Shown piece after piece: positions 1 through 17,116 of a stretch of 64,000 bases of DNA. Location: contig JBMNJH010000007.1 of assembly GCA_050951565.1 (NCBI GenBank), positions 14,515-78,514 on the forward strand. Direction: 5' to 3'. The notes below the pieces were generated by a model, which saw nothing but the letters and a program-made list of their open reading frames with translations, was not told the DNA's origin and did no database searches. Within the stretch, counting starts at the first letter, position 1; every line of letters begins with the position of its first letter. The translations under genes and the position numbers were made by a program. The DNA is from Peptococcia bacterium (GTDB taxonomy: Bacteria > Bacillota > Peptococcia > DRI-13 > DTU073).

Positions 1-641
1 TCTTTCTTGGCCTGGTCCCGGGAAAGCTGAGCCTTTTCCAAAGCAATTTCCGCCAGGGAAACGCTATTGGCACTCTGCTTCAGCTCTTCGGCTGTTGGCT
101 CATCCAACACTAAAACGGGCGGATGATGCAGGATGGCCATCGCCAGGGAAAGCCGCCGCTTCATCCCGCCGGAATAATGTTGCACCGGTTTGTCAATGTC
201 GTTAGATAAGTTGACTAACGCCATGACCTCTCTGATTCGTTTTTTGATTTCCCCCTTATTCATCCCATAAATCGAACCGAAAAACCGCAGGTTTTCGCCC
301 GCCGTGAGTGTCCCGTACAGGGCATCGGACTGCGCCATGTAACCCAGCTTGTTCATTAAACTAAGCTGCGGCATCGGCTCGTCCAAAACATCCACTTCAC
401 CCGAAGTGGCTTCCAAAAGCCCCGCGATGATTTTGACCATGGTTGTTTTGCCACAGCCGGAAGGACCCAGCAATCCGTAGATTTTTCCATAGGGAATCTC
501 CAGACTAATCCCTTTCAAAACGTGCTTGTCGCCAAAATATTTATGCACGTCCCGCACCACAATACAGTAAGAACTTTTGTTACTGTCCGAATTATGCTGT
601 TCCTTTTGGGGCGCATGGGGATAAGAGCGCTCTTCCATCAT
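1..641 (-). CDS. ABC transporter ATP-binding protein, partial (runs off the window; region after Walker B is atypical)
   Basis: Manual reverse-strand translation from ATG at 641. Walker A GLLGPSGCGKTT, signature YSGGMKRRLSLA and Walker B VLVLDEPT are all in one frame (ATG GCC ATC at 140 is in frame with 641). It is absent from the ORF track because there is no stop inside the window. After DEPT the frame reads AEELKQSANSVSLAEIALEKAQLSRDQAKK rather than a D-loop/H-loop. Confidence 0.75.
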   Translation of the reverse strand, partial: MMEERSYPHAPQKEQHNSDSNKSSYCIVVRDVHKYFGDKHVLKGISLEIPYGKIYGLLGPSGCGKTTMVKIIAGLLEATSGEVDVLDEPMPQLSLMNKLGYMAQSDALYGTLTAGENLRFFGSIYGMNKGEIKKRIREVMALVNLSNDIDKPVQHYSGGMKRRLSLAMAILHHPPVLVLDEPTAEELKQSANSVSLAEIALEKAQLSRDQAKK

Positions 642-690
642 CAAGCATCACTTCCAAAACTGATCGTTTAAATCTACTTCCAAAGCCTGT

Positions 691-1851
691 CTACCGGTCA
701 AAAATCCGGGATACCTCTTGCAGGTTCTCCACGATCTTGAGGTGTTGAGGACAATGCTCTTCACACTGCTTGCAGCCGATACAGTCCCCCGCCTTCCCAT
801 AGTTCTCGATAAAATTGCTGTAGTAAGTCCGGTGGGCAGGCACCAACCTAAACCGTTTCACATTGTTATACAGGGCAAAGTAGTCGGGGATCGCTATTTT
901 TTGGGGGCAGCCTTCCACACAGTAACCACAGGCCGTACAGGGGATGGCAATACTGCTGTTAATGATCTGGGCCGCCTGGTCGATGATTGCTTTTTCATCT
1001 TCATTTAAAGGAACAATATCCTGCATATAGCTGATATTGTCAACCATTTGTTCCAGGTCGCTCATCCCGCTCAAGACCATAAAAACATGATCCAGGGATG
1101 CGGCAAAACGGACAGCCCAGGAGGCTACGCTCATCTCGGGATGATAGGCCTTAAATAGCTTTTCCGCTTCTTCCGGGACATTGGCCAGGGCGCCGCCTTT
1201 GACCGGTTCCATGACGATAATCGGTTTTTGGTGCTTGACCGCTAGTTCATAACACTTGCGGGATTCAATGGTTTCATGTTCCCAATCGATATAGTTGATC
1301 TGCAACTGCACAAATTCCATCTCCGGATGCTCGGTTAAAATCCGGTCCAACACCTCCGCTTTATCATGGAAGGAAAAGCCGGCATGCCTGATTTTGCCCT
1401 CTTTCTTCATTTTATCGATGAATTCAAAACCGCCATGTTCCAATGTATTGGCATAGTTTTTTACGCCGAGGGTATGCAAGAGGTAATAATCAAAATAGCT
1501 AACCCCGCATTTTTCCAACTGCTCATTGAAAAAGCGCTCGTAATCTTCATGTTTGGTAACAAAAAAGGTGGGCATCTTATCAGCAAGCTGGTATGATTCC
1601 CGGGGATGCCTTTCCACCAGGGCCTTACGGGTAGCAAGCTCGCTCAATCCTTTATGGTAACGGTAGGCCGTATCAAAATAGGTAAAACCTTGCGCGAGAA
1701 AATAGTCCACCATCTGATTGAGCAGTTCCTGATTAATACTGGTCTGATCTTCCTCGTTGGTTAACGGTAACCGCATCAAGCCAAATCCTAGTTTCTTCAT
1801 TACAGCTTTTCCTCCTGTCATGACGTTTTTTGGGACAACTTTTGTTTCCAT
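691..1851 (-). CDS. Aldo/keto reductase with C-terminal 2x[4Fe-4S] ferredoxin-type domain
   Basis: 386-aa ORF. The N-terminal part is AKR-like (GFGLMRLP, FDTAYRYHKG). The C-terminus has two CxxCxxCxxxCP motifs (CTACGYCVEGCP, CIGCKQCEEHCP). Confidence 0.85.
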   Translation of the reverse strand: METKVVPKNVMTGGKAVMKKLGFGLMRLPLTNEEDQTSINQELLNQMVDYFLAQGFTYFDTAYRYHKGLSELATRKALVERHPRESYQLADKMPTFFVTKHEDYERFFNEQLEKCGVSYFDYYLLHTLGVKNYANTLEHGGFEFIDKMKKEGKIRHAGFSFHDKAEVLDRILTEHPEMEFVQLQINYIDWEHETIESRKCYELAVKHQKPIIVMEPVKGGALANVPEEAEKLFKAYHPEMSVASWAVRFAASLDHVFMVLSGMSDLEQMVDNISYMQDIVPLNEDEKAIIDQAAQIINSSIAIPCTACGYCVEGCPQKIAIPDYFALYNNVKRFRLVPAHRTYYSNFIENYGKAGDCIGCKQCEEHCPQHLKIVENLQEVSRIFDR

Positions 1852-1887
1852 TGGATCTTATTTTATAAATCTATGGTTGCCTCATGA

Positions 1888-2847
1888 TCATCCTACGTTT
1901 CTTAGGCGGTTTAATGTATCTTTCAGGATATGATAGCCGGTTTCCGGATCCTCAACATCAAAAACTGATTCTTCCAGCGGGCAGATGCCGTCCCCGGTCC
2001 GGTTGATTACTTTATCGATTAATTGGCCAAAACTTACCCCACAATCATGTCCGGTCAGATAGTCCCGGGCGGCAGCGCTCATGAGTTCCCCGTAGGCTCT
2101 TTTCGCCCCTCCCAGCACAAGCACGATGGCGGCAGCCTTTCCAATGAGCTTGTCAACAACATAGGAATCCTTCAATAATTCCGGTTCCTCCTCAAAAATT
2201 GTGATCAACGGGGAAATCCCTTGACCACTGGCCGTACGGATAATCTCGTCGTTTTTGATAATCACGCAACTGACCTTTCCATCCTTAATCATTTGGATGG
2301 CTTTGGCCAGGGACAACATTTTCAATTCGGCACCATGATTCCAATGTGAACGAACAGCTTTAACAACGGCCGGAACTAAAAGCAACTGAAGTACAATCCC
2401 GGGAAGCCCCTTCATAAAAGCTGCCGTTACGGAAAGAGCTTGCAATACTCCGTTATTTAACATCAGGAGAAACGTAAACAGCAATCCGTAAGCCAGCCGT
2501 CCACAGAACATGGCAATCAGCATGGAGGGATAAAGCGGGATCCTGACCTTTTGATAAAGAAAGCCGCTTACCAACCCATAGATGAAAAGCTCCCCCATCA
2601 TAATAGGCAGCATCGGAAAAAAGGAAGGCATCCCCGTTAAAAGGCTGGATAGAAAAGGGGTAAGTAAACCTCCTATAGCGCCGTAGGCCGGTCCGCAGAG
2701 CAGCCCCATCAAAAAAACCGGTATGTGCATTGGCAAAAGTACTGTTCCCGGTACACCGAAAGCATGAGCAGTGAAATAAGGAAGTAACAAACCGATACAG
2801 ACAAGCAATCCTGATAAAACAATACGGTGAGATGCGCTTTTCGTCAT
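1888..2847 (-). CDS. ThiW-like ECF-transporter S component fused to a C-terminal DUF1893 (TM1506-like) domain
   Basis: The N-terminal ~170 aa are polytopic, with the ThiW-type signature LPMHIPVFLMGLLCGP...LLTPFLSSLLTGMP. The C-terminal ~140 aa are soluble and match the DUF1893 pattern (DKLIGKAAAIVLVLGG ... INRTGDGICPLEE). Confidence 0.6.
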   Translation of the reverse strand: MTKSASHRIVLSGLLVCIGLLLPYFTAHAFGVPGTVLLPMHIPVFLMGLLCGPAYGAIGGLLTPFLSSLLTGMPSFFPMLPIMMGELFIYGLVSGFLYQKVRIPLYPSMLIAMFCGRLAYGLLFTFLLMLNNGVLQALSVTAAFMKGLPGIVLQLLLVPAVVKAVRSHWNHGAELKMLSLAKAIQMIKDGKVSCVIIKNDEIIRTASGQGISPLITIFEEEPELLKDSYVVDKLIGKAAAIVLVLGGAKRAYGELMSAAARDYLTGHDCGVSFGQLIDKVINRTGDGICPLEESVFDVEDPETGYHILKDTLNRLRNVG

Positions 2848-2926
2848 TTGAACACTCCTTCTGTTACTATGTCTTTTTTTACATCTTTTAAGAAAGCGGT
2901 TGATGCAAAAAGGGCTACTTTAGATA

Positions 2927-3214
2927 TTATACTCTTTGAATCCCTTGCAAATCAAAATAAACATTGTCTAATTTTTCATCCCTGAGCCAATCAGGAATGT
3001 CCATACCATTTATCTGCAGACAACAATCTATTAAGGCCGAAGCTTTTGTCAAATACACAAGCTCCTGATCAGTACATAAATCCAGATTCACCGGCTCGTT
3101 AAGACTGTTGATAAAGTCATTATCTTTGCTCTTTTATAACTCGATAAGCTGATTGAAACTTGTATCCTCGTCAGGGTAAGTAAATAATTCCTGTAAATAC
3201 CTATTCCCAATCAT
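2927..3214 (-). pseudogene. Small ORF interrupted by an in-frame TAA (26 codons, stop, 68 codons)
   Basis: Manual translation gives MIGNRYLQELFTYPDEDTSFNQLIEL*KSKDNDFINSLNEPVNLDLCTDQELVYLTKASALIDCCLQINGMDIPDWLRDEKLDNVYFDLQGIQRV*. The internal TAA is at 3136..3134. No family recognised. Confidence 0.35.
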
Positions 3215-3241
3215 AACCTAAATCCTTTCCTAAGATGGCCA

Positions 3242-3622
3242 TCATGCTCCTCCCTTTTGTTCACAATTATATTCCCTGCTCATGGCCTCTTTTAAATCAT
3301 CCCGGACACTTATCTCCGCCAAGGGTACTTTGGAACGATAAGCCGCCCGGCAAGTCATGTGCGCTGCAACGGGAGAAGTAAGAAAAACAAAGAAAATCCC
3401 CAGGAATAACTTGATACTAAAATACCTCTCCACAAACAAGAAAAACAAAAAGGTGCCCAGGAGAACAAATAATACCCCCAAGGTGCAGCTTTTGGCAAGA
3501 GCATGGGCACGGTTATAGACATCCGGTAAGCGAATAAACCCGATGGCACTAAGGGAACCAGCGACGGTCCCAATTAAAATCAAAAAAACACTGCCCAATT
3601 CAATCAGATGACCGGCGCTCAA
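3242..3622 (-). CDS. mrpG: Na+/H+ antiporter Mrp/Mnh subunit G
   Basis: 126-aa three-TM protein. It is last in a seven-gene operon with the canonical MrpA-G sizes and order, and overlaps mrpF. Confidence 0.8.
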   Translation of the reverse strand: MSAGHLIELGSVFLILIGTVAGSLSAIGFIRLPDVYNRAHALAKSCTLGVLFVLLGTFLFFLFVERYFSIKLFLGIFFVFLTSPVAAHMTCRAAYRSKVPLAEISVRDDLKEAMSREYNCEQKGGA

Positions 3623-3884
3623 TCACCACACCCCTTTCCATGTACTTGGCCAAGGCGATGGTCCCTATAAAGGACAAAATGCCCAGCAAGAGAATTACTT
3701 CGAAAAAGGCGGTGCTTCTTAAAATCACCGAAAAAACCCCCATCCCGGCAATCATGTTAATCCCTAACGCATCTAAGGCCTGGGTCCGTTCCGGAGTCGA
3801 AGGCCCCTTAATCAAACGATAAATCGAAACCAGGATAGAAAGCGTCACAAAGCCGGTCGATAAATACAACATAACCTTAATCAT
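3600..3884 (-). CDS. mrpF: Na+/H+ antiporter Mrp/Mnh subunit F
   Basis: 94-aa membrane protein in the correct position within the mrp operon. Its stop/start overlaps mrpE (ATGA-type). Confidence 0.8.
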   Translation of the reverse strand: MIKVMLYLSTGFVTLSILVSIYRLIKGPSTPERTQALDALGINMIAGMGVFSVILRSTAFFEVILLLGILSFIGTIALAKYMERGVVIERRSSD

Positions 3885-4369
3885 TTTCTCGTCACCTTCT
3901 TAATCGCTTCTTCAAACCGGTTCCTGGACCGCAGCACCGCATCACTCAACTCCGGGATATCCATCACATGGGTGTATAGTATTTTGTAATCAGGAGAAAC
4001 CTCCATCACCACTGAACCCGGCGTTAAGGTAATCAGCAGGGCCAGTAGAGTAACTTCTATGTCCCCTTCCAGGCTGGTTTCCATCGCCACAATGCCTGGT
4101 TTAATGCGAATTTGCGGGGTGATAATTTTTCGGATCACCAGGATACTGGAAATAAACATTTCCCAGATAAAAAGCAGAAAAAGACTGATTACCGCATGCA
4201 AGGTGAACAAGTAAAATTTCGAACGCAGGAAGCGCCGGATAACAAACAACACACACAAACCGAATAAATAACCGCTTAAAAAGCTCAAAGCGCTCCAATC
4301 ATTTTGAAAGAACATCCATAACAAACCGATAAACAGATTGATTAACACTTGCATGGGCATTATCATCAC
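3881..4369 (-). CDS. mrpE: Na+/H+ antiporter Mrp/Mnh subunit E
   Basis: 162 aa, with N-terminal TM segments and a soluble C-terminus. Placed by position in the operon. Confidence 0.75.
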   Translation of the reverse strand: MMIMPMQVLINLFIGLLWMFFQNDWSALSFLSGYLFGLCVLFVIRRFLRSKFYLFTLHAVISLFLLFIWEMFISSILVIRKIITPQIRIKPGIVAMETSLEGDIEVTLLALLITLTPGSVVMEVSPDYKILYTHVMDIPELSDAVLRSRNRFEEAIKKVTRK

Positions 4370-4445
4370 CCCTTTCTGTCATCATTGCTGTAAATTGCGG
4401 CTCAGCAACGCACCTAAATACTGCTCCCATCTGCTTTATCCCCTG

Positions 4446-5930
4446 CTAAAGATTGCTACTCAGCACCGCATCTACATAGAGGCGAGGATCGCTTAGGACC
4501 GCTACCGCCAAATCCACATACTCACTAAGCGCTTCCGCCCCTAAACCCAAGAAAAGAACGACCGCGGTGAGAATTCCCAGGGGCCACAACAACCCTTTCG
4601 TGGTCCCTTTTTCCGTCTCGGCGGTATAGTTCGTATATCCCCAAAAGACCTGCATAAAGATTTTCATGACCGAATACAGCACCAAAAGCCCGGTGAAAAG
4701 GCCAATTCCCCCCAGCCAGAAATAGCCGGCCTGAAAAGTCCCGGTAGTGACAAACAGCTTCCCAATAAAACCGCTTAAGGGCGGGATTCCGGATAAAGCC
4801 AGGGCCGCCAGAAAGAACATCCACCCCAACTGGGGATGCAAACGAATCAGCCCACTCATCTCTTTCAGTTTATCGGTCCCGGTTAAGTGAATAATCGTTC
4901 CCCCCAAAAGAAAGAGCAGCGCCTTCACGTTCATATCATGAAGCAGGTAATACACCGCGCCTCTCATCCCTTCTAAAGTAAAAGAGGCAAAGCCCGCGAG
5001 AATAAACCCAACCCCCACCACCACGTTATAAGTAAGAATCCTTCGAATATCCCAATAGGCTACGGCTCCCATCGCCCCCAGCACCATCGACACGGCGGCC
5101 AAAATCCCGATGAACAGGTGGGTAACATTAGGCTCATGGTAAAAGACAAGGGAAAACAAACGGATAATCCCGTAGACCCCCACCTTGGTTAATAGGGAGG
5201 CAAAAAGAGCCGCGATGGCCGTAGGCGGCGCGCTGTAAGGGCCGGGCAACCAAAAGAACAGAAATAAACCGGCTTTAATACTAAAGACTATCAAGAACAA
5301 AAAGGCAACGGCCGTCATCAGCCCGCCCTGCCCGGCTTGAGCCACCCGGACGGACAAATGCGCCATATTTAAGGTGCCCAGCATGGCATATAAAAAGGCA
5401 ATGGCGATCAAAAACAAAGAAGAGGAAATCATATTAATTAGAATATACTTAACCGACTCCCTTAGCTGCATCTTCGTTCCGCCCAAGGTAATCAACACAT
5501 AGGAAGCTACCAGCATCACCTCAAAGAAAACAAACAGATTGAAAATATCCCCGGTCAGAAAAGAACCGTTCACCCCGGCCATTAAAAACAAAGTCAAAGG
5601 GTAAAAGTAATGTTGCTCCCGGTCCGCTCCAATGGAAGAAAAAGCATAGCACAAGCAGCAAAAGGTGATCAGGGCGGTAGTCAAAACAAGCAGTACCGCA
5701 AACATATCTGCTACCAAGGTGATGCCAAAGGGAGCCTCCCAGCCGCCTAAATAAAGGGTTTGCACCCCTTCCCTTTTGATTTGTTCCAGCAAAAAGGCCG
5801 CTACAGCGCCAATCGAAAGGGTCACCGCAATGCTTAAATAGCGCTGTAGCTTTATCATATTTTTGCAGATCACCATCACCATGCCGGCAATGATGGGAAT
5901 GACAATGGGCAAAACAATGGTATTATTCAT
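4446..5930 (-). CDS. mrpD: Na+/H+ antiporter Mrp/Mnh subunit D (NuoN/ND2-like proton-pumping subunit)
   Basis: 494-aa polytopic protein of the complex I antiporter-like family (WLPGPYSAPPTAIAALF, GIPPLSGFIGK). Confidence 0.9.
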   Translation of the reverse strand: MNNTIVLPIVIPIIAGMVMVICKNMIKLQRYLSIAVTLSIGAVAAFLLEQIKREGVQTLYLGGWEAPFGITLVADMFAVLLVLTTALITFCCLCYAFSSIGADREQHYFYPLTLFLMAGVNGSFLTGDIFNLFVFFEVMLVASYVLITLGGTKMQLRESVKYILINMISSSLFLIAIAFLYAMLGTLNMAHLSVRVAQAGQGGLMTAVAFLFLIVFSIKAGLFLFFWLPGPYSAPPTAIAALFASLLTKVGVYGIIRLFSLVFYHEPNVTHLFIGILAAVSMVLGAMGAVAYWDIRRILTYNVVVGVGFILAGFASFTLEGMRGAVYYLLHDMNVKALLFLLGGTIIHLTGTDKLKEMSGLIRLHPQLGWMFFLAALALSGIPPLSGFIGKLFVTTGTFQAGYFWLGGIGLFTGLLVLYSVMKIFMQVFWGYTNYTAETEKGTTKGLLWPLGILTAVVLFLGLGAEALSEYVDLAVAVLSDPRLYVDAVLSSNL

Positions 5931-6261
5931 TCTCGTAACCCCTTAATTGTTCTGAGTTGTCGGTGCCTAATTCTTCATAAGTACGGTAGCTTAACACCAA
6001 AAAAAGTGCGGTGGTGGCAAAATTAATGACGATGGCCGTAAGCAACAGCGCCTGGGGCAAAGGATCGGTAAAGGAATACTCCTTCCAACCCAAAAGCGGC
6101 GCCCCGCCCTTTTTTAAGCCCCCCATGGTCATAATCAGCAAATTGACGCCATGACCAATAATCGAGATCCCTAACAGAATCCTCAGCAAAGTTTTCGAGA
6201 GAATCAAATAAGTGCCTATAGCAAATAAAATTCCAATGACAACGCACATAATGGTTTCCAT
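5923..6261 (-). CDS. mrpC: Na+/H+ antiporter Mrp/Mnh subunit C (NuoK-like)
   Basis: 112-aa three-TM protein that overlaps both mrpD and mrpB. Confidence 0.85.
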   Translation of the reverse strand: METIMCVVIGILFAIGTYLILSKTLLRILLGISIIGHGVNLLIMTMGGLKKGGAPLLGWKEYSFTDPLPQALLLTAIVINFATTALFLVLSYRTYEELGTDNSEQLRGYENE

Positions 6262-6686
6262 TAACGATCATCACCTATGCTCATAATAATGGTCAACGAT
6301 GTTCCGATGACGGCCAGGGCCACGCCCACATCAAATAAAACCGCCGTGGCCAGCTCAGTCTGCCCAAAAACCGGAAGATGCACCTGGCCAAAGGTTTGGT
6401 ATAAAAAGTTTTTACCGGCAAGCATGCCGCCTACCCCGGTAAACACCGAAATGAGCACTCCTATTCCGGCCACCTTTTTAAAATCCACCGCGATATTCCG
6501 GCGCACCTTATCAATCCCGTAAACAAGAAAAAGAAGAACAATCGCCGCCACAAAAGACAGCCCGCCGATAAAGCCTCCTCCCGGCCGGTGATGCCCGGAA
6601 ATAAACAGGTGGATGGAAAAGGTCAGGATGATCACCACGGCTGCTTTCGATACTGTTCTTAAGATCACATCATTGGCTTCCTTCAT
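6261..6686 (-). CDS. mrpB: Na+/H+ antiporter Mrp/Mnh subunit B
   Basis: 141-aa membrane protein (GHHRPGGGFIGGL motif) in the correct operon position. Confidence 0.85.
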   Translation of the reverse strand: MKEANDVILRTVSKAAVVIILTFSIHLFISGHHRPGGGFIGGLSFVAAIVLLFLVYGIDKVRRNIAVDFKKVAGIGVLISVFTGVGGMLAGKNFLYQTFGQVHLPVFGQTELATAVLFDVGVALAVIGTSLTIIMSIGDDR

Positions 6687-9087
6687 GTTCTTCCCTCCTT
6701 GTCAAACACAGCTTAATCAAGGTATACACTCCTAAGCCCGCCATGGACAGAACCAATATTTCCAGCATGGTATCAAAACCACGGAAGTCCACAAGAATGG
6801 CATTCACAATATTTTTGGCTCCGGCCAGTTGGTATGAGTTCTTATAAAAACCGGAGATCGACGGAAACAAATGATGGGCATAGGCCGAAAAGGCCACCAG
6901 CGTCATCACGGTCCCAACCCCGATGGCGATGACGCCATTGACCAACTTAAACCGCCAGGGGCTTTTTTCCTTTTTAAACTTGGGCAAATGGTAAATGCAC
7001 AACAATAACAAAACTGTGGTAACGGTTTCCACCACTAACTGGGTAAGCGCCAGGTCTGGGGCCCGAAAGATCACAAAAAAGGTAACCACCATAAATCCCA
7101 GTCCGCCAACAGCGATAACGGACGTCAATCTTGATTGGGAAAGGAGCACCGTAATAGCGCAGGAAACCATCCCCAGAAGCAACAGAATTTCATAAAGACT
7201 GACCGCGGAGTTCCGGGAAAAATCCAAAGTAAATCCATTAAATAAATAGACCGCTCCCCCTACCACCAAAATTACAAAAGCCAGGATATAGACCAAATAA
7301 TCCCGGGCGAAACCGGTCATATACCGCTTCGTGACCGCCCGCGAGAACACTTCCGTCTTTTCCAGGAGCCATATGTAGAGATTGTTCAAAGTGTACCTAT
7401 GAGGGTAAAGACGCAAGAAGCGTCTCCATTTAAGAAAGGTCTTATATAAGAAAAACCCCAACAGCACTACCCCGATGGTCATCAATAAGGCCGCATTAAA
7501 CCCATGCCATGGTTTAATTTCGTACTGTAAAGAGGCTGCCCCCTCAAAAGTCGGCAAGACCGCTTCCCAGGCCGGCTGCAATAAATGGCGGGACAAAACA
7601 TTGGGGTAGAAAAAAATAATGATCACTAAAGCCGCTAAGATGATGGGTGAAAGCAACATGCCAAAAGAAGCTTCATGGGGTTTTTTCTTCAATTTCTCAG
7701 TATGTTGCTTGCCCAGGAAAGTCCTACAAAGAATGATTAAGCAATAAACAAAAGTAAAGACACTGGCCAGCCAGGCCACAAACACCAGGAGACTACCCCA
7801 TCTTCCCATTTGAAAAAATGGCATTTCCCCGGCCTTTAATACCGCCGCAAAAAACATCTCCTTGCTTAGAAAGCCGTTAAAAGGAGGCAGGCCGGCCATG
7901 GCCAAGCTCCCCGTCAAGGTCAGAAGGAAGGAGATGGGCATGGCCTGCATTAAACCGCCTAACTTCCGAATACTCCGTGTCCCTAGCTCATGGTCGATTA
8001 TCCCCACCACCATAAAGAGACAACCTTTAAAAGTGGCGTGATTCACCAGGTGAAAAATGGCGGCAAAGATGGCAATGGCGTACACTGTCCCTTCCTTGCC
8101 GGCACCAAAATACAAAGCAGCCGAGCCTAAACCTAATAAGCTCATGATTAAACCCAACTGGCTAATGGTCGAATAAGCCAGGAGGGCTTTTAAATCGGTC
8201 TGTTTCAGGGCATTTAAAGAGCCGTAGAACAAGGTGACCAGACCGACGCCCGCCACCAGCCAGAACCATTCCGCTGCCCCACCGAAAAGCAGCGTTAAAC
8301 GGGCGACCAGATAAATGCCCGCTTTCACCATCGTGGCCGAATGTAAATAGGCGCTGATGGGCGTTGGCGCCTCCATGGCATCAGGCAACCAGATACTAAA
8401 GGGAAACTGGGCTGATTTGGTAAACGCCCCCAACAGGACTAAAACCATCGCCGGCACAAAAAAGGGATGCGACTGGATGAGCTCTACTTTGTTCATTAAT
8501 GCTTGAATGCTGGCTGTTCCGGTGATCAGGAAAAGAAGAATAAAGCCCGCCAGCATCGATAGACCGCCAAAAACCGTAATCAACAAAGACTTTTGGGCGC
8601 CGGAGCGGGATTTTTCCCGTTCGAACCAGTAGGCGATCAACAAAAAGGACGAGATACTGGTGATTTCCCAAAAAACATATAAGACAAAAAGGTTGTCGGC
8701 AAAAACAACGCCCAGCATGGCTCCCATAAAGAGGAGCAAATAAACATAGAAATTATGTAAGGCTTCTTTGAACTTGGACAAATAATAAATTGAATAAAGG
8801 GTCACCAAAAAGCCCATGCCGCTAATGATTAAAGCAAAAACTAGGGCTAAACCGTCCAGATGGGCGGTTAAATTAAGACCATAAGACGGAATCCAGGGAA
8901 GGTTCAAATGAACGATCCGGCCGGCGGAAATAATAGGGATGTAGGAACAAAGATAACAAAATAAAATCAACGGAACAAACAGAACAAACCAACCCGTGTG
9001 GATCCGAGGGTTAATACGCTTATGTAAGAACGGAACAAAAACAGCGGTAATAAATGGAAGAGCGATGACCTGGTAGAAGTATGCCAT
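6670..9087 (-). CDS. mrpA: Na+/H+ antiporter Mrp/Mnh subunit A (NuoL-like plus MrpB-like C-terminal domain)
   Basis: Large polytopic ORF of the complex I antiporter family (WLPDAMEAPTPISAYLHSATMVKAG). I moved the start to ATG 9087 (MAYFYQ...), which follows the RBS AAAGGAGAAGG. The track start at 9135 has no RBS. Confidence 0.9.
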   Translation of the reverse strand: MAYFYQVIALPFITAVFVPFLHKRINPRIHTGWFVLFVPLILFCYLCSYIPIISAGRIVHLNLPWIPSYGLNLTAHLDGLALVFALIISGMGFLVTLYSIYYLSKFKEALHNFYVYLLLFMGAMLGVVFADNLFVLYVFWEITSISSFLLIAYWFEREKSRSGAQKSLLITVFGGLSMLAGFILLFLITGTASIQALMNKVELIQSHPFFVPAMVLVLLGAFTKSAQFPFSIWLPDAMEAPTPISAYLHSATMVKAGIYLVARLTLLFGGAAEWFWLVAGVGLVTLFYGSLNALKQTDLKALLAYSTISQLGLIMSLLGLGSAALYFGAGKEGTVYAIAIFAAIFHLVNHATFKGCLFMVVGIIDHELGTRSIRKLGGLMQAMPISFLLTLTGSLAMAGLPPFNGFLSKEMFFAAVLKAGEMPFFQMGRWGSLLVFVAWLASVFTFVYCLIILCRTFLGKQHTEKLKKKPHEASFGMLLSPIILAALVIIIFFYPNVLSRHLLQPAWEAVLPTFEGAASLQYEIKPWHGFNAALLMTIGVVLLGFFLYKTFLKWRRFLRLYPHRYTLNNLYIWLLEKTEVFSRAVTKRYMTGFARDYLVYILAFVILVVGGAVYLFNGFTLDFSRNSAVSLYEILLLLGMVSCAITVLLSQSRLTSVIAVGGLGFMVVTFFVIFRAPDLALTQLVVETVTTVLLLLCIYHLPKFKKEKSPWRFKLVNGVIAIGVGTVMTLVAFSAYAHHLFPSISGFYKNSYQLAGAKNIVNAILVDFRGFDTMLEILVLSMAGLGVYTLIKLCLTRREEHEGSQ

Positions 9088-9149
9088 CAAGCCTTCTCCT
9101 TTCCAATTGATGAAAGCACGTCCCAACCAAAGCAAAAAAGCGGCTAATA

Positions 9150-9178
9150 TTGACGGAACAGCAAAGATAAGTTATATT
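9150..9178 (+). promoter_or_regulatory. Candidate sigma-A promoter for the Usp-like gene
   Basis: TTGACG (9150-9155), a 17-nt spacer, then TATATT (9173-9178), about 45 nt upstream of ATG 9223. Confidence 0.4.
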
Positions 9179-9222
9179 CATCATAAGTGCAAGTATACTA
9201 TACCTGCGGAGGGAAACAGAAA

Positions 9223-9891
9223 ATGCCGGGAATGAACAAATGCACCGATGAACGGATTCTCGTTTGTGTTTATTATGGACCAAATGGTGAACGACTGATC
9301 AAGCGTGGCATTAAGATTGCTCAAATGTCCAACTGCCCCCTCTATATTTTACATATTGACCCGAAACCCCTTGACGAAATGGATGCGGAAAAATCAGACT
9401 ATATTGCCAAATGGAGACGTTTAGCGGAAGAAAACGGAGCCGAGGAGTTTGTCCTGCTCGATAACGAACCGCGTCCCGCCTATCAAGTAATTGCGGAAGT
9501 GGCCCGCCAGAAGAGAATCACACAAATCATTATCGGCGAATCCCCCCACAGCCGCTGGGAACAAATCTCCAAAGAATCCATCGTCAATGCCTTGTTGCGG
9601 GAAATTCCCTTCATTGATCTCCATATTGTTTCGGTCGCCCGTTATATGAAAGACGCCGATGATAATTACAATAAAGGCGTAAGAGCCTATCTTGTAAAAG
9701 AGGATGACCACTATCGGCTGACTTTTATCTACACCCATAACGTTGAATATGAGGGTATCTTCTTTAAAGAAAGCGGAACCGATTTTAACAACGGCATCTT
9801 TCGCTTTCGAAAAGAGCAAGAAACCATCCAGGTGCAAGTAATTGAAGATCTTGTTAAAGATTTTACCAATGTGGAATTGGAAACCAACTAA
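9223..9891 (+). CDS. Universal-stress-protein (KdpD-Usp-like) domain protein with an uncharacterised ~80-aa C-terminal domain
   Basis: The N-terminal part is ILVCVYYGPNGERLIKRGIKIAQ...ITQIIIGESPHSRW...IDLHIVS (Usp/adenine-nucleotide alpha-hydrolase pattern). Start set at ATG 9223, after the RBS GGAGGG. Confidence 0.6.
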   Translation: MPGMNKCTDERILVCVYYGPNGERLIKRGIKIAQMSNCPLYILHIDPKPLDEMDAEKSDYIAKWRRLAEENGAEEFVLLDNEPRPAYQVIAEVARQKRITQIIIGESPHSRWEQISKESIVNALLREIPFIDLHIVSVARYMKDADDNYNKGVRAYLVKEDDHYRLTFIYTHNVEYEGIFFKESGTDFNNGIFRFRKEQETIQVQVIEDLVKDFTNVELETN

Positions 9892-9979
9892 TGTTGTTTT
9901 ACTATACCTCTTCTGCTATTTAGTATTCATTATAGCATATTTCACCATTAGTTCACCAACCATGAAAAAGGATTCCCCA

Positions 9980-10006
9980 AAGCCGGCGATAGGCCGGCTT
10001 TTTTAT
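9980..10006 (+). terminator. Rho-independent terminator of the Usp-like gene
   Basis: AGCCGGC-GATA-GCCGGCT hairpin followed by TTTTTTA. Confidence 0.7.
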
Positions 10007-14464: not shown

Positions 14465-17116
14465 TTATTTGCGCGGATAGCTGATCTGCGCCTGGGCGGC
14501 CGCTAGTCTGGCAATCGGCACTCTAAAGGGTGAGCAACTGACAAAGTCCAAACCGACCAGGTGGCAGAACTCTACGGAGTTCGGATCGCCGCCATGCTCG
14601 CCGCAGATGCCGATGAGGAGATTCGGCTTCTTCTCGCGGCCTTTCTTCACCGCTAACTTCATAAGCTCGCCGACGCCGTCACGGTCGATGACCATGAAGG
14701 GATCTTCCTTGAGGATTTTCTTATCGAGATAGTCATGCATAAATTTGCCTTCCGCGTCGTCACGGCTGAACCCAAAGGTCGTCTGGGTAAGGTCGTTGGT
14801 TCCAAAGGAGAAGAAGTCGGCGTGCTCAGCCAGTTCATCTGCTACCAGGCAGGCCCGCGGTAATTCAATCATGGTGCCTACGTAATACTCAAATTTCACC
14901 CCTGCTTTATTTATAATTTCTTCCGCGATCTGTACAGCTTCTTCCTTCAAGAGGGACAGCTCATTGGGATGAATAACGAGCGGAATTTCTACTTCCGGAA
15001 TTACCTTATAGCCTTCCTTCACCAAACGGACCGCCGCCTGGAAAATAGCTCTTACCTGCATCCGGTAGATTTCAGGATAACTGACCCCTAAACGGCAGCC
15101 TCTGTGGCCGAGCATCGGGTTAAATTCATGCAGGGATCTTGCTTTGGCCAGGAGAAATTCTTTTTTCTCGATTTCCTTCTTGTTGCCGCCCTTAAGCCTT
15201 AATTCAGCAAGCTCAATCGCCAGCTCTTCCGCATTAGGCAGGAATTCATGTAAGGGAGGATCCAGCAAACGAATGGTAACCGGGAATCCGTCCATTGCTT
15301 TTAAGATACCGTAGAAATCCTCTTCCTGCATAGGCATCAGTTTAGCTAAAGCCGCTTCCCTTTCCTCGGCTGTATCCGCCATAATCATTTCCTGCACAAT
15401 CGGAATCCGGTCGGGCGCCATAAACATATGCTCGGTGCGGCAGAGCCCAATTCCTTCGGCTCCAAAACCCCGGGCCTTTTTCACATCATTAGGAGTATCG
15501 GCATTAGTACGCACACCCAGCTTTCTGAATTGATCCGCCCACTCTAAAAGAATCTGGAACTCACCGCTTAATTCCGGATCGATCATTTTTACTTCACCTA
15601 ACATTACACTGCCGGTACTACCATCCAGTGAGATAATGTCGCCTTCCTTAATGACCAGATCTTTAACCCTAATTACACCGGCTTGTTCATCAATCTTCAA
15701 GGCTTCACAGCCACAAACACAACATTTACCCATCCCGCGCGCCACAACCGCAGCATGGCTGGTCATCCCGCCACGGCTGGTTAAAATACCTTGTGCCGCC
15801 ACGATACCATGAATATCATCAGGTGTTGTTTCCGTGCTCACTAAGATTACTTTTTCTCCATTTTTTCCGAGTTCTTCAGCTTTATCCGCATTCAAAACAA
15901 CGGCACCACTAGCCGCACCAGGAGAAGCAGGCAAACCTTTGGCAATCACTTCAGCCTTGGAACTGGGATCAATTCTTCTATGTAATAATTGATTCAGGGA
16001 AGAAGGATCTACCCGTAACACCGCTTCCTCTTTCGTAATCAATCCTTCTTTCTGTAAATCAACGGCAATCTTGACCGCTGCATGGGCCGTTCTCTTTCCG
16101 GTTCTGGTCTGCAGCATGTATAATTTACCGCGTTCAATGGTAAACTCGATATCCTGCATATCCCGGTAGTGGTTTTCCAAGGTCTTACAAATCTTCTCAA
16201 ACTGTGCATATATTTCCGGTGCATCCTTCTGCAAAGCCGAAATGGGATTAGGTGTACGAATTCCGGCCACAACGTCTTCCCCTTGGGCATTCATTAAATA
16301 TTCGCCGTAGATTTTCTTTTCCCCGGTCGAAGGATTGCGGGTAAAGGCCACCCCGGTTCCGGAATCATCGCCCACATTACCGAAAACCATCGACTGGACA
16401 TTAACGGCAGTGCCCAGGTCATCGGAAATCTTGTTGATTTTCCGGTATACGATCGCTCTCGGATTGTACCATGAACTGAAAACTGCCTTTACGGCCATGA
16501 TTAATTGTTCTTTCGGATCGGTTGGGAACTCACGGCCGGTCTCTTTCTTGACGATCTCTTTATAGGCCTGGATCACCTTTCTCAGCGCTTCCGGTGATAA
16601 GTCTTTGTCTACCTCTACCCCGTACTCTTCTTTCACCTTCTCCAACGCCGCTTCAAAGTTTTTATGCTCCACTTCCATTACCACATTAGCGAACATTTGA
16701 ATAAACCGTCTGAAGCAATCCAGTACAAAACGCTCGTTGCTGGTCTGTTTAATCATCCCTTGAACGGTTTGTTCGTTCAAGCCAAGATTGAGAATTGTAT
16801 CCATCATCCCAGGCATGGAAACAGGAGCGCCCGAGCGAACGGAAACCAGCAACGGATTGTCGGCATCGCCAAATTTTCTTCCGGTCTCTTTTTCCACCTC
16901 TTTTAATTTGGCCCACATGTCTTCTTCCATGCCGTCGGGGAACTTCTGCCCTAACTTGTAATATTCTTTACAGGCTTCCGTGGTAATCGTCAATCCAGGA
17001 GGCACCGGCAGACCAATACTTCTCATTTCCGCAAGGTTAGCCCCTTTGCCGCCCAGCAGGTTTTTCATGTCCGCCCGTCCTTCATTGAACAAGTAAACAT
17101 ACTTTACCTTTCCCAT
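14465..17116 (-). CDS. ppdK: Pyruvate, phosphate dikinase
   Basis: 883 aa. ATP-grasp N-terminus (GGKGANLAEM), phosphohistidine domain (GGMTSHAAVVARGMG) and PEP-utilising C-terminus (GLCRTEHMF ... FSFGTNDLTQ). Confidence 0.95.
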   Translation of the reverse strand: MGKVKYVYLFNEGRADMKNLLGGKGANLAEMRSIGLPVPPGLTITTEACKEYYKLGQKFPDGMEEDMWAKLKEVEKETGRKFGDADNPLLVSVRSGAPVSMPGMMDTILNLGLNEQTVQGMIKQTSNERFVLDCFRRFIQMFANVVMEVEHKNFEAALEKVKEEYGVEVDKDLSPEALRKVIQAYKEIVKKETGREFPTDPKEQLIMAVKAVFSSWYNPRAIVYRKINKISDDLGTAVNVQSMVFGNVGDDSGTGVAFTRNPSTGEKKIYGEYLMNAQGEDVVAGIRTPNPISALQKDAPEIYAQFEKICKTLENHYRDMQDIEFTIERGKLYMLQTRTGKRTAHAAVKIAVDLQKEGLITKEEAVLRVDPSSLNQLLHRRIDPSSKAEVIAKGLPASPGAASGAVVLNADKAEELGKNGEKVILVSTETTPDDIHGIVAAQGILTSRGGMTSHAAVVARGMGKCCVCGCEALKIDEQAGVIRVKDLVIKEGDIISLDGSTGSVMLGEVKMIDPELSGEFQILLEWADQFRKLGVRTNADTPNDVKKARGFGAEGIGLCRTEHMFMAPDRIPIVQEMIMADTAEEREAALAKLMPMQEEDFYGILKAMDGFPVTIRLLDPPLHEFLPNAEELAIELAELRLKGGNKKEIEKKEFLLAKARSLHEFNPMLGHRGCRLGVSYPEIYRMQVRAIFQAAVRLVKEGYKVIPEVEIPLVIHPNELSLLKEEAVQIAEEIINKAGVKFEYYVGTMIELPRACLVADELAEHADFFSFGTNDLTQTTFGFSRDDAEGKFMHDYLDKKILKEDPFMVIDRDGVGELMKLAVKKGREKKPNLLIGICGEHGGDPNSVEFCHLVGLDFVSCSPFRVPIARLAAAQAQISYPRK

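Follow-up and report, generated by a model that had tools for sequence, protein, structure and literature searches.

A candidate nickel-pincer cofactor uptake module: an ECF S-component domain fused to a TM1506/DUF1893 domain beside an iron-sulfur aldo/keto reductase in a Peptococcia bacterium

Comparison of 401 genomes suggests that a vitamin-transporter-like membrane protein and the adjacent iron-sulfur reductase of a Peptococcia bacterium import and use the nickel-pincer cofactor (NPMN/NPN) or a very close derivative, which this bacterium is inferred to be unable to make. The two genes lie in a window of 64,000 nucleotides (positions 14,515 to 78,514 of contig JBMNJH010000007.1, assembly GCA_050951565.1), which is the whole stretch of DNA analysed here. 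All of the evidence is comparative, without biochemical support of any kind, and we give this reading a probability of about 0.5. The features of the locus, in window coordinates, are as follows.

2926..2955 (-): promoter-like site TTGATT-18-TATAAT, about 80 nt upstream of the start codon of the fusion gene, found by a consensus scan only
1888..2847 (-): fusion gene, 319 aa, ECF S-component domain plus TM1506/DUF1893 domain
2338..2847 (-): S-component domain, residues 1-170, with six predicted transmembrane helices and the invariant motif LPMH (residues 38-41)
1915..2301 (-): TM1506/DUF1893 domain, residues 183-311, with a predicted deaminase-like fold, probably cytoplasmic
2128..2154 (-): motif D232-K-L-I-G-K237-A-A-A, where the conserved site is completed by invariant R283, C289 and E292 (nt 1972-2001)
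691..1851 (-): aldo/keto reductase with two 4Fe-4S motifs, the candidate user of the nickel-pincer cofactor
1366..1374 (-): S160-F-H162 of the reductase, the proposed counterpart of NphT T142-x-H144 (the nickel ligand)
1198..1203 (-): V217-K218 of the reductase, the proposed counterpart of NphT I199-K200 (the covalent thioamide tether)
742..939 (-): two CxxCxxCxxxCP motifs of the reductase (residues 305-316 and 357-368)

The earlier note, made from the sequence alone, had described one ORF joining an S-component to a DUF1893 domain and followed by an Fe-S aldo/keto reductase, and this observation was confirmed. The 319-aa ORF is open, and Pfam profiles assigned PF12822 (ECF_trnsprt) to residues 8-162 (53.5 bits, cut-off 30.7) and PF08973 (TM1506) to residues 183-311 (125.6 bits, cut-off 27). 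Since the same architecture is common, occurring in 580 protein clusters at 47-71% identity, the ORF is not a sequencing join, a possibility that had been named beforehand as a refutation. The reductase ORF matched PF00248 at residues 20-293 (149.5 bits) together with Fer4 families. The gap between the fusion gene and the reductase gene is 36 nt, as the note had given, while the gap to the following ABC gene is 46 nt if its TTG start at 644 is used, compared with the 49 nt in the note. No terminator-like site was found between the fusion gene, the reductase gene and the start of the ABC gene. However, the ABC gene, which the note called a drug-exporter-type ATPase, is a truncated chimera in which an ABC N-terminal half is joined in frame to a HlyD barrel-sandwich domain. 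It does not recur next to the transporter elsewhere and nothing ties it to the pair, and it was thus rejected as part of the system.

The AlphaFold2 model of the fusion protein (mean pLDDT 87) shows six long helices (residues 5-30, 41-51, 53-71, 79-101, 105-130 and 140-169), a low-confidence linker at 171-175, and then an alpha/beta domain. Foldseek matched the membrane half to ThiT, PanT, RibU and FolT with target-normalised TM 0.57-0.66. Basic residues lie at the N-terminus, in the TM4-TM5 loop and after TM6, suggesting N-in/C-in topology, although this is inferred from the positive-inside rule and the known S-component fold. In helix 1, where a small-xxx-small (AxxxA-type) motif serves docking to EcfT, the protein has G13-x3-C17 and the family consensus is G-x3-A followed by invariant G19, in a register relative to solved S components that remains unverified. 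The note had remarked that no EcfA/EcfT genes were nearby. This is normal for a group II ECF system, and a single ecfA-ecfA'-ecfT cluster, with one CbiQ/EcfT gene preceded by two ABC ATPase genes and followed by truA and rplM, was found on another contig of the genome. The solitary S gene with a shared EcfAA'T module is as in the group II vitamin transporters, from which the fusion differs by its C-terminal soluble domain, the lack of a riboswitch, and a predicted substrate that is a metallo-cofactor. No transporter for this cofactor was described in the papers we searched. A possibility that the membrane half is only an anchor, placing TM1506 and the Fe-S reductase at the membrane as a redox module, is allowed by the uncertain inter-domain geometry of the model (pTM 0.53), which also precluded any judgement on whether the pockets of the two domains face each other. 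We consider the anchor very unlikely, because the domain keeps the full S-component fold and family-wide conserved polar and proline motifs, the genome encodes the energising module, stand-alone orthologues pair with a kinase in the classic import-then-trap arrangement, and the reductase has no signal peptide or membrane segment.

The interpretation in the note was partly supported. An uptake-type S component covalently fused to a DUF1893 domain and co-oriented with an Fe-S aldo/keto reductase fits a salvage or processing route for a small molecule, as the note had inferred, whereas its ThiW (thiazole-precursor) label failed. A whole-genome search with PF09512 at E<=10 found only another locus, at E about 1, and gave no match to this gene, and ThiW was not listed by a Pfam scan of the protein at E<=0.1. 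No Rfam match at E<=1 was found in window positions 1-10000, no thiM/thiE context or other thiamine genes lie nearby, and Rfam scans of 40 related loci found no TPP element and no riboswitch upstream of the S gene, the FMN, T-box and lysine elements found there belonging to other genes. ThiW clusters are structural neighbours in the ESM Atlas (TM 0.75), and ThiT is among the Foldseek hits, which is expected for any S component. ThiW is likewise a small ECF S component of Bacillota, but at the level of family membership this reading is already refuted.

The C-terminal domain matched the TM1506 structure 1VK9 by profile (E 4.7e-20) and superposed on it with TM 0.80 and rmsd 1.8 A, and it also matched 9E9A. 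D232 and K237, in the motif DKxxGKAAA, align with VIDKMVGKAAA of 1VK9 and are 90-100% conserved. D232 corresponds to Asp56 of TM1506, which is reported to be ADP-ribosylated (Xu et al. 2008, as quoted in PMC3239186), and TM1506 was also crystallised with a nucleotide-like ligand (PMC3239186). The combination of TM1506, a "5TM" membrane protein and an aldo/keto reductase with a Cys-rich C-terminal domain was described in 2011 by Iyer, Zhang, Rogozin and Aravind (PMC3239186) without an assigned function, and read as redox sensing or regulatory ADP-ribosylation before nickel-pincer reductases were known. Here, the membrane protein is identified as an ECF S component fused to TM1506, and the Cys-rich domain as a 2x[4Fe-4S] ferredoxin. 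What is new is that the unknown small molecule of the note now has a specific candidate.

NphT, the NPMN-dependent hydride transferase of the AKR superfamily (Semersky et al., Nat Chem 2026, PMC13524815), has the tetrad D47/Y52/K75/H106 with T142-x-H144 and I199-K200. The reductase has the AKR catalytic tetrad D60, Y65, K92 and H126, and S160-F-H162 in a position corresponding to the nickel-ligand motif, where the canonical NADPH enzyme 1YNP has S-S-I. The His is invariant in 17 of 17 and 29 of 29 family members. K218 lies 56 residues after H162, the same spacing as H144 to K200 in NphT, and 1YNP has Ala at this column, which is however Lys in only 8 of 17 neighbours of the transporter and Arg in most other members. 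A search of PDB sequences, even at E<=10, did not return NphT (9YEB), and the His/Lys assignment therefore rests on spacing, residue type and contrast with one canonical reductase rather than on a direct alignment. The reductase carries an additional two-cluster ferredoxin domain and is not next to larBCE; the NphT paper does not mention transporters, DUF1893 or ferredoxin fusions. Members of this Fe-S family sit directly beside larC in 2 of 30 larC loci.

The genome itself is 98% complete and has no LarC and no LarA, and no LarE or LarB match above cut-off, and we read the absence of larB, larC and larE as dependence on import. In the sample of 401 genomes of the phylum, LarC was present in 5 of 59 TM1506 carriers against 227 of 342 others, and in 33 of 119 carriers of the S family against 199 of 282 others, while the S family was present in 45 of 59 TM1506 carriers against 74 of 342 others. 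Of 161 LarC-negative genomes, 58 have a strong LarA homolog, up to ten copies each, and 50 of those 58 have the S family or TM1506, compared to 45 of the other 103. Of these 45 carriers without LarA, 31 have the Fe-S reductase, against 11 of 58 controls. Overall, 81 of 100 LarC-negative genomes with a candidate client enzyme have the S family or TM1506, against 14 of 61 without one, and collapsing to one point per family gave 41 of 50 against 7 of 32. The genomes are related, so that Fisher values for such counts overstate significance, and a shared ecology of gut-type anaerobes could contribute to the pattern. Our one control, BioY, was uninformative because it is near-universal (359 of 401 genomes). 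In addition, the 14 LarC-negative carriers lacking an identified client, the LarC-positive carriers, and Thermotoga maritima, which has TM1506, LarC and LarA, count against the proposal.

Gene neighbourhoods were examined as well. The Fe-S reductase lies next to the S gene in 14 of 80 loci, only about one in six. The transporter gene sits beside LarA-family genes in several LarC-negative genomes: a LarA homolog is adjacent to the S gene in two cases, and a LarA-like gene lies 16 nt upstream of it in two others. DUF362, which belongs to the same Pfam clan as the LarA N-terminal domain (PMC11770544), neighbours the S gene in 4 or 5 loci, although direct BLASTP of DUF362 against LarA showed no similarity and the relationship rests on that paper. 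Neighbours of stand-alone TM1506 genes (pilN/pilO, lexA, cupin, gerA, MATE, HD) reflect lineage synteny and were not informative, and literature searches on DUF3842 and COG1453 gave nothing useful.

Stand-alone orthologues of the S domain are followed by a uridine-kinase-like P-loop kinase with weak similarity to nicotinamide riboside kinase in about 20 of 53 loci, recalling the PnuC-NadR arrangement in which a riboside is imported and then phosphorylated, although with a different transporter fold. In the S-domain tree the kinase (sister clade) and TM1506 (the clade of the window) are alternative partners, and the genome analysed has no such kinase. A rival reading is that the S component imports another pyridine or nucleoside-type compound, for example an NAD precursor such as nicotinamide or nicotinate riboside or mononucleotide, with TM1506 as an NAD/ADP-ribose-binding regulator or ADP-ribosyltransferase controlling transport, as Iyer et al. 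proposed, and with only an indirect link to nickel-pincer genes. The ligands reported for TM1506, the kinase neighbours and the 33 LarC-positive genomes with the S family agree with this. We consider it unlikely, since it does not explain why TM1506 carriers so rarely have LarC, why genomes with LarA but no LarC almost always carry the transporter, or why LarA-family and His-motif reductase genes sit next to the S gene.

We propose that the two genes form a module of cofactor import plus client enzyme. In this view, the S component would capture the compound outside the cell, driven by the shared EcfA-EcfA'-EcfT module, and the TM1506 domain, a pyridine-nucleotide-binding, deaminase-like fold on the cytoplasmic face, would receive, hold or process it. 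The cofactor would then be loaded into the reductase, where His162 would ligate the nickel and Lys218 would tether the cofactor, and the two 4Fe-4S clusters would link its hydride chemistry to ferredoxin-type electron carriers. The domain identities, the ECF module, the absence of lar genes, the conserved His/Lys positions (mapped to NphT without a direct alignment) and the phyletic and neighbourhood patterns are direct results of the analysis, whereas EcfT-dependent uptake, the identity of the substrate, NPMN binding and the hand-over to the reductase are inferred, and the chemistry of the TM1506 domain is speculative. NPMN is usually protein-bound, and its availability in the environment is unproven.

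The TM1506 domain may instead be only a feedback sensor, which shuts a nickel-pincer transporter when the cytoplasmic ligand binds (trans-inhibition), and act as a general small-molecule regulatory domain wherever it occurs. It lacks the zinc ligands of true deaminases (PMC3239186), is most often a stand-alone protein of about 150 aa with varied neighbours, and is fused to unrelated catalytic partners, an S component here and a bona fide homoserine kinase in four genomes, the latter not being explained by our model. This reading is also unlikely, because a nearly invariant set of polar residues (D232, K237, S257, R283, C289 and E292) together with a covalent adduct on the Asp looks more like a reactive site than a plain binding site, and the alternation with the kinase suggests a processing role.

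If the proposal is correct, which remains tentative for its most far-reaching form, this would be the first recognised uptake system for the nickel-pincer cofactor, and would show that the cofactor is traded like a vitamin among anaerobes. TM1506, a structural-genomics orphan whose structure was solved in 2004, would gain a function as the cytoplasmic partner that accepts or remakes the imported cofactor, possibly by ribosyl or base-exchange through the Asp found ADP-ribosylated, with a riboside kinase doing the equivalent job in the sister clade. Nickel-pincer enzymes (LarA-type racemases and epimerases and, since 2026, aldo/keto reductases) are spreading through genome annotation, and how LarA homologs obtain their cofactor in genomes without the nickel-inserting enzyme LarC is not addressed in the papers we searched. 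A dedicated ECF-type importer would explain it, would add a new metallo-cofactor to the shared vitamins of gut and sediment communities, and would give a simple genomic marker for cofactor auxotrophy.

The genes considered here lie on the minus strand, and the stretch around them is organised as follows.

3-644 (-), continuing beyond the window to positions 7382-8644 of the extended locus L003: ABC ATPase ORF, starting 46 nt beyond the reductase gene
691-1851 (-): aldo/keto reductase with 4Fe-4S dicluster families, 386 aa, 36 nt after the fusion gene
1888-2847 (-): ECF S component fused to TM1506/DUF1893, 319 aa
2955-2926: promoter-like site
2927-3214 (-): short reading frame that looks like a gene remnant, in the 394-nt gap between mrpG and the fusion gene
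3242-9135 (-): complete mrp-type Na+/H+ antiporter operon of seven genes, A to G, immediately upstream and ordinary

In the 319-aa protein, Pfam gave PF12822 (ECF S component, residues 8-162, 53.5 bits) and PF08973 (TM1506/DUF1893, residues 183-311, 125.6 bits), while the 386-aa protein matched PF00248 plus 4Fe-4S dicluster families and has two CxxCxxCxxxCP motifs at residues 305 and 357. An AlphaFold2 model of the fusion, built on 49 homologues (pLDDT 87, pTM 0.53), showed six long helices, a low-confidence, apparently disordered linker at 171-175, and an alpha/beta domain. Foldseek placed the soluble half of the model on TM1506 structure 1VK9 (TM 0.80, rmsd 1.8 A), and the membrane half on ThiT, PanT, RibU and FolT. 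The same two-domain protein was found in 580 clusters at 47-71% identity, so it is a real fusion, and the observation made in the earlier note held. Basic residues lie at the N-terminus, in the TM4-TM5 loop and after TM6, which fits the usual N-in/C-in topology and would put TM1506 in the cytoplasm, although that placement is inferred. No terminator-like site separates the fusion, reductase and ABC genes.

The interpretation offered in the earlier note was only partly supported. It had called the membrane half ThiW-like, however the ThiW profile did not match this gene even at E<=10, the best NCBIfam hit was a sub-threshold FolT-family match, and no Rfam family matched window positions 1-10000 at E<=1. 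It had also remarked that no EcfA/EcfT genes are nearby. The 2.0-Mb genome, which is 98% complete, has one ecfA-ecfA'-ecfT-truA-rplM cluster on another contig and four PF12822 genes, an ordinary group II arrangement. The gene described as a drug-exporter-type ABC ATPase is a 420-aa chimera, in which an ABC N-terminal half with Walker A, the signature motif and Walker B is joined in frame to a HlyD barrel-sandwich domain, probably by a deletion that fused two genes. It is followed by spoIIGA, sigE, a GNAT gene, sigG, nrdR and nrdD, and we see no link between it and the pair.

The association of TM1506 with such a reductase is already known. Iyer et al. 2011 noted that TM1506 genes of Firmicutes and Bacteroidetes are linked to an aldo/keto reductase with a Cys-rich domain and to a '5TM' protein, and that TM1506 was crystallised with an unknown nucleotide-like ligand and with ADP-ribose on Asp56, and they proposed NAD/ADP-ribose sensing or regulatory ADP-ribosylation. 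In our profile alignment to 1VK9, Asp56 is the Asp of VIDKMVGKAAA, which is D232 of DKLIGKAAA in the window's protein. D232, K237, S257, R283, C289 and E292 are invariant or nearly so.

In order to examine the gene neighbourhoods of this S family, we scanned species-representative genomes and found at least 585 loci, of which 80 were analysed. About 27 of the 80 are fusions or have an adjacent TM1506 gene, and about 53 encode a stand-alone S protein of roughly 175 aa. The Fe-S reductase recurs in 14 loci. A P-loop kinase of about 195 aa from the uridine-kinase family lies directly downstream of the stand-alone S gene in about 20 loci (for example L082:3497-4090 and L181:2374-2967), with PDB hits to uridine kinase, phosphoribulokinase and, weakly, nicotinamide riboside kinase. 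This kinase is uncharacterised, and at loci L058, L059 and L060 it has an extra N-terminal region of about 190 aa of unknown family. DUF3842, of about 140 aa and with no known function, is a neighbour in 9 loci (L066:2330-2761 and 8 others), a SAM methyltransferase in 5, and DUF362, which belongs to the same Pfam clan as the LarA N-terminal domain, in 4 or 5. No riboswitch preceded the S gene in 40 loci. A tree of the S domains splits them into two clades with 95% SH-aLRT support for the split. One holds nearly all the TM1506-linked proteins, including the window's, and the other holds the kinase-linked proteins, while the reductase and DUF3842 occur in both. TM1506 and the kinase therefore look like alternative cytoplasmic partners. 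The window's own genome has no such kinase, no DUF3842 and no DUF362.

Semersky et al. 2026 showed that some aldo/keto reductases use the nickel-pincer mononucleotide (NPMN) in place of NAD(P)H. In their enzyme NphT, His144 ligates the nickel and Lys200 tethers the cofactor, while the catalytic tetrad D47/Y52/K75/H106 is retained. That paper does not mention transporters, DUF1893 or ferredoxin fusions. We looked for the corresponding residues in the window's reductase, which has D60/Y65/K92/H126, S160-x-H162 (NphT T142-x-H144) and V217-K218 (NphT I199-K200), a correspondence that rests on position and not on a direct alignment to NphT. The His-to-Lys distance is 56 residues in both proteins, and in the alignment to the canonical NADPH enzyme 1YNP these two columns are Ile and Ala. 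The His is invariant in 17 of 17 reductases that neighbour the transporter and in 29 of 29 further relatives. The Lys column is Lys in 8 of the 17 and mostly Arg elsewhere, which fits the remark of Semersky et al. that many candidates have His without Lys. Of 30 larC loci, two carry a reductase of this same Fe-S family directly upstream of larC. In comparison, the window's own genome has no LarC, no LarA, and no LarE or LarB match above cut-off.

Phyletic patterns were then compared in 401 genomes of the phylum, with the same genomes used in every search. TM1506 was present in 59 genomes, LarC in 232 and the S family in 119. LarC occurs in 5 of 59 TM1506 carriers, against 227 of 342 others, and in 33 of 119 S carriers, against 199 of 282 others, whereas the S family occurs in 45 of 59 TM1506 carriers, against 74 of 342 others. 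Of the five genomes with both TM1506 and LarC, two carry a different TM1506 fusion (to ThrB) and two lack the S family. Fusions of TM1506 to ThrB are not explained by the account proposed here: at L117:517-1899 (+), a locus of genome G001, a bona fide homoserine kinase (TIGR00191, 273 bits) is fused to a C-terminal TM1506 domain downstream of homoserine dehydrogenase, and open frames of 460-490 aa also occur in genomes G365, G340 and G389.

Of the 161 LarC-negative genomes, 58 have a strong LarA homolog, some with up to ten copies, and 50 of these 58 carry the S family or TM1506, against 45 of the 103 without LarA. Several of the eight exceptions are incomplete assemblies. The LarC-negative genomes G019, G360, G162 and G053 carry 6 to 10 Lar_N matches each, a large investment in enzymes whose cofactor they apparently cannot make. 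Of the 45 carriers without LarA, 31 have a full-length Fe-S reductase, compared to only 11 of 58 non-carriers without LarA. Taken together, 81 of 100 LarC-negative genomes with a candidate client have the system, against 14 of 61 without a client, although relatedness among the genomes inflates these statistics and a BioY control was uninformative. Collapsed to one point per taxonomic family and client state, the counts are 41 of 50 against 7 of 32. The only other genome of the window's family, G343, lacks TM1506, the S family, the Fe-S reductase, LarA and LarC. The two-gene module therefore appears to be present or absent as a unit, which fits lateral acquisition.

Physical links between the S family and LarA were also observed. 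In genome G231 a LarA homolog is divergently adjacent to an S-kinase pair, and at locus L023 a LarA homolog lies 1 kb upstream of a fusion gene. In G138 (L182:1533-4594) and G317 (L183), genomes that are in the same class as the window's and lack LarC, an operon reads TctB-like, galactarate/altronate dehydratase, divergent LarA-like protein (428 aa), then the S component 16 nt downstream, then a LysR gene. This may be a sugar-acid epimerase that depends on imported cofactor.

The role of TM1506 is the weakest step of the reading given below. The domain could be an acceptor or chaperone for the imported cofactor, or a processing enzyme, with the Asp adduct perhaps a trapped ribosyl-enzyme intermediate, in parallel with the kinase of the sister clade, or a feedback sensor. 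The analysis establishes domain identities, residue positions, gene neighbourhoods and phyletic patterns, all of them comparative, whereas the imported substrate and the binding of NPMN by the reductase are inferred, and the function of TM1506 is speculative. The occurrence of the S family in some LarC-positive genomes, and of 14 LarC-negative carriers without a client, also counts against the proposed function. The fusion and its reductase neighbour are known but uncharacterised, and the function proposed here was not found in the literature searched.

The simplest account is that this S family imports the nickel-pincer cofactor, or a close derivative, into bacteria that cannot make it, and that in the window the transporter would be co-transcribed with its only recognisable client. 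In this view it would be an ECF cofactor transporter with a new substrate class and a fused handling domain.
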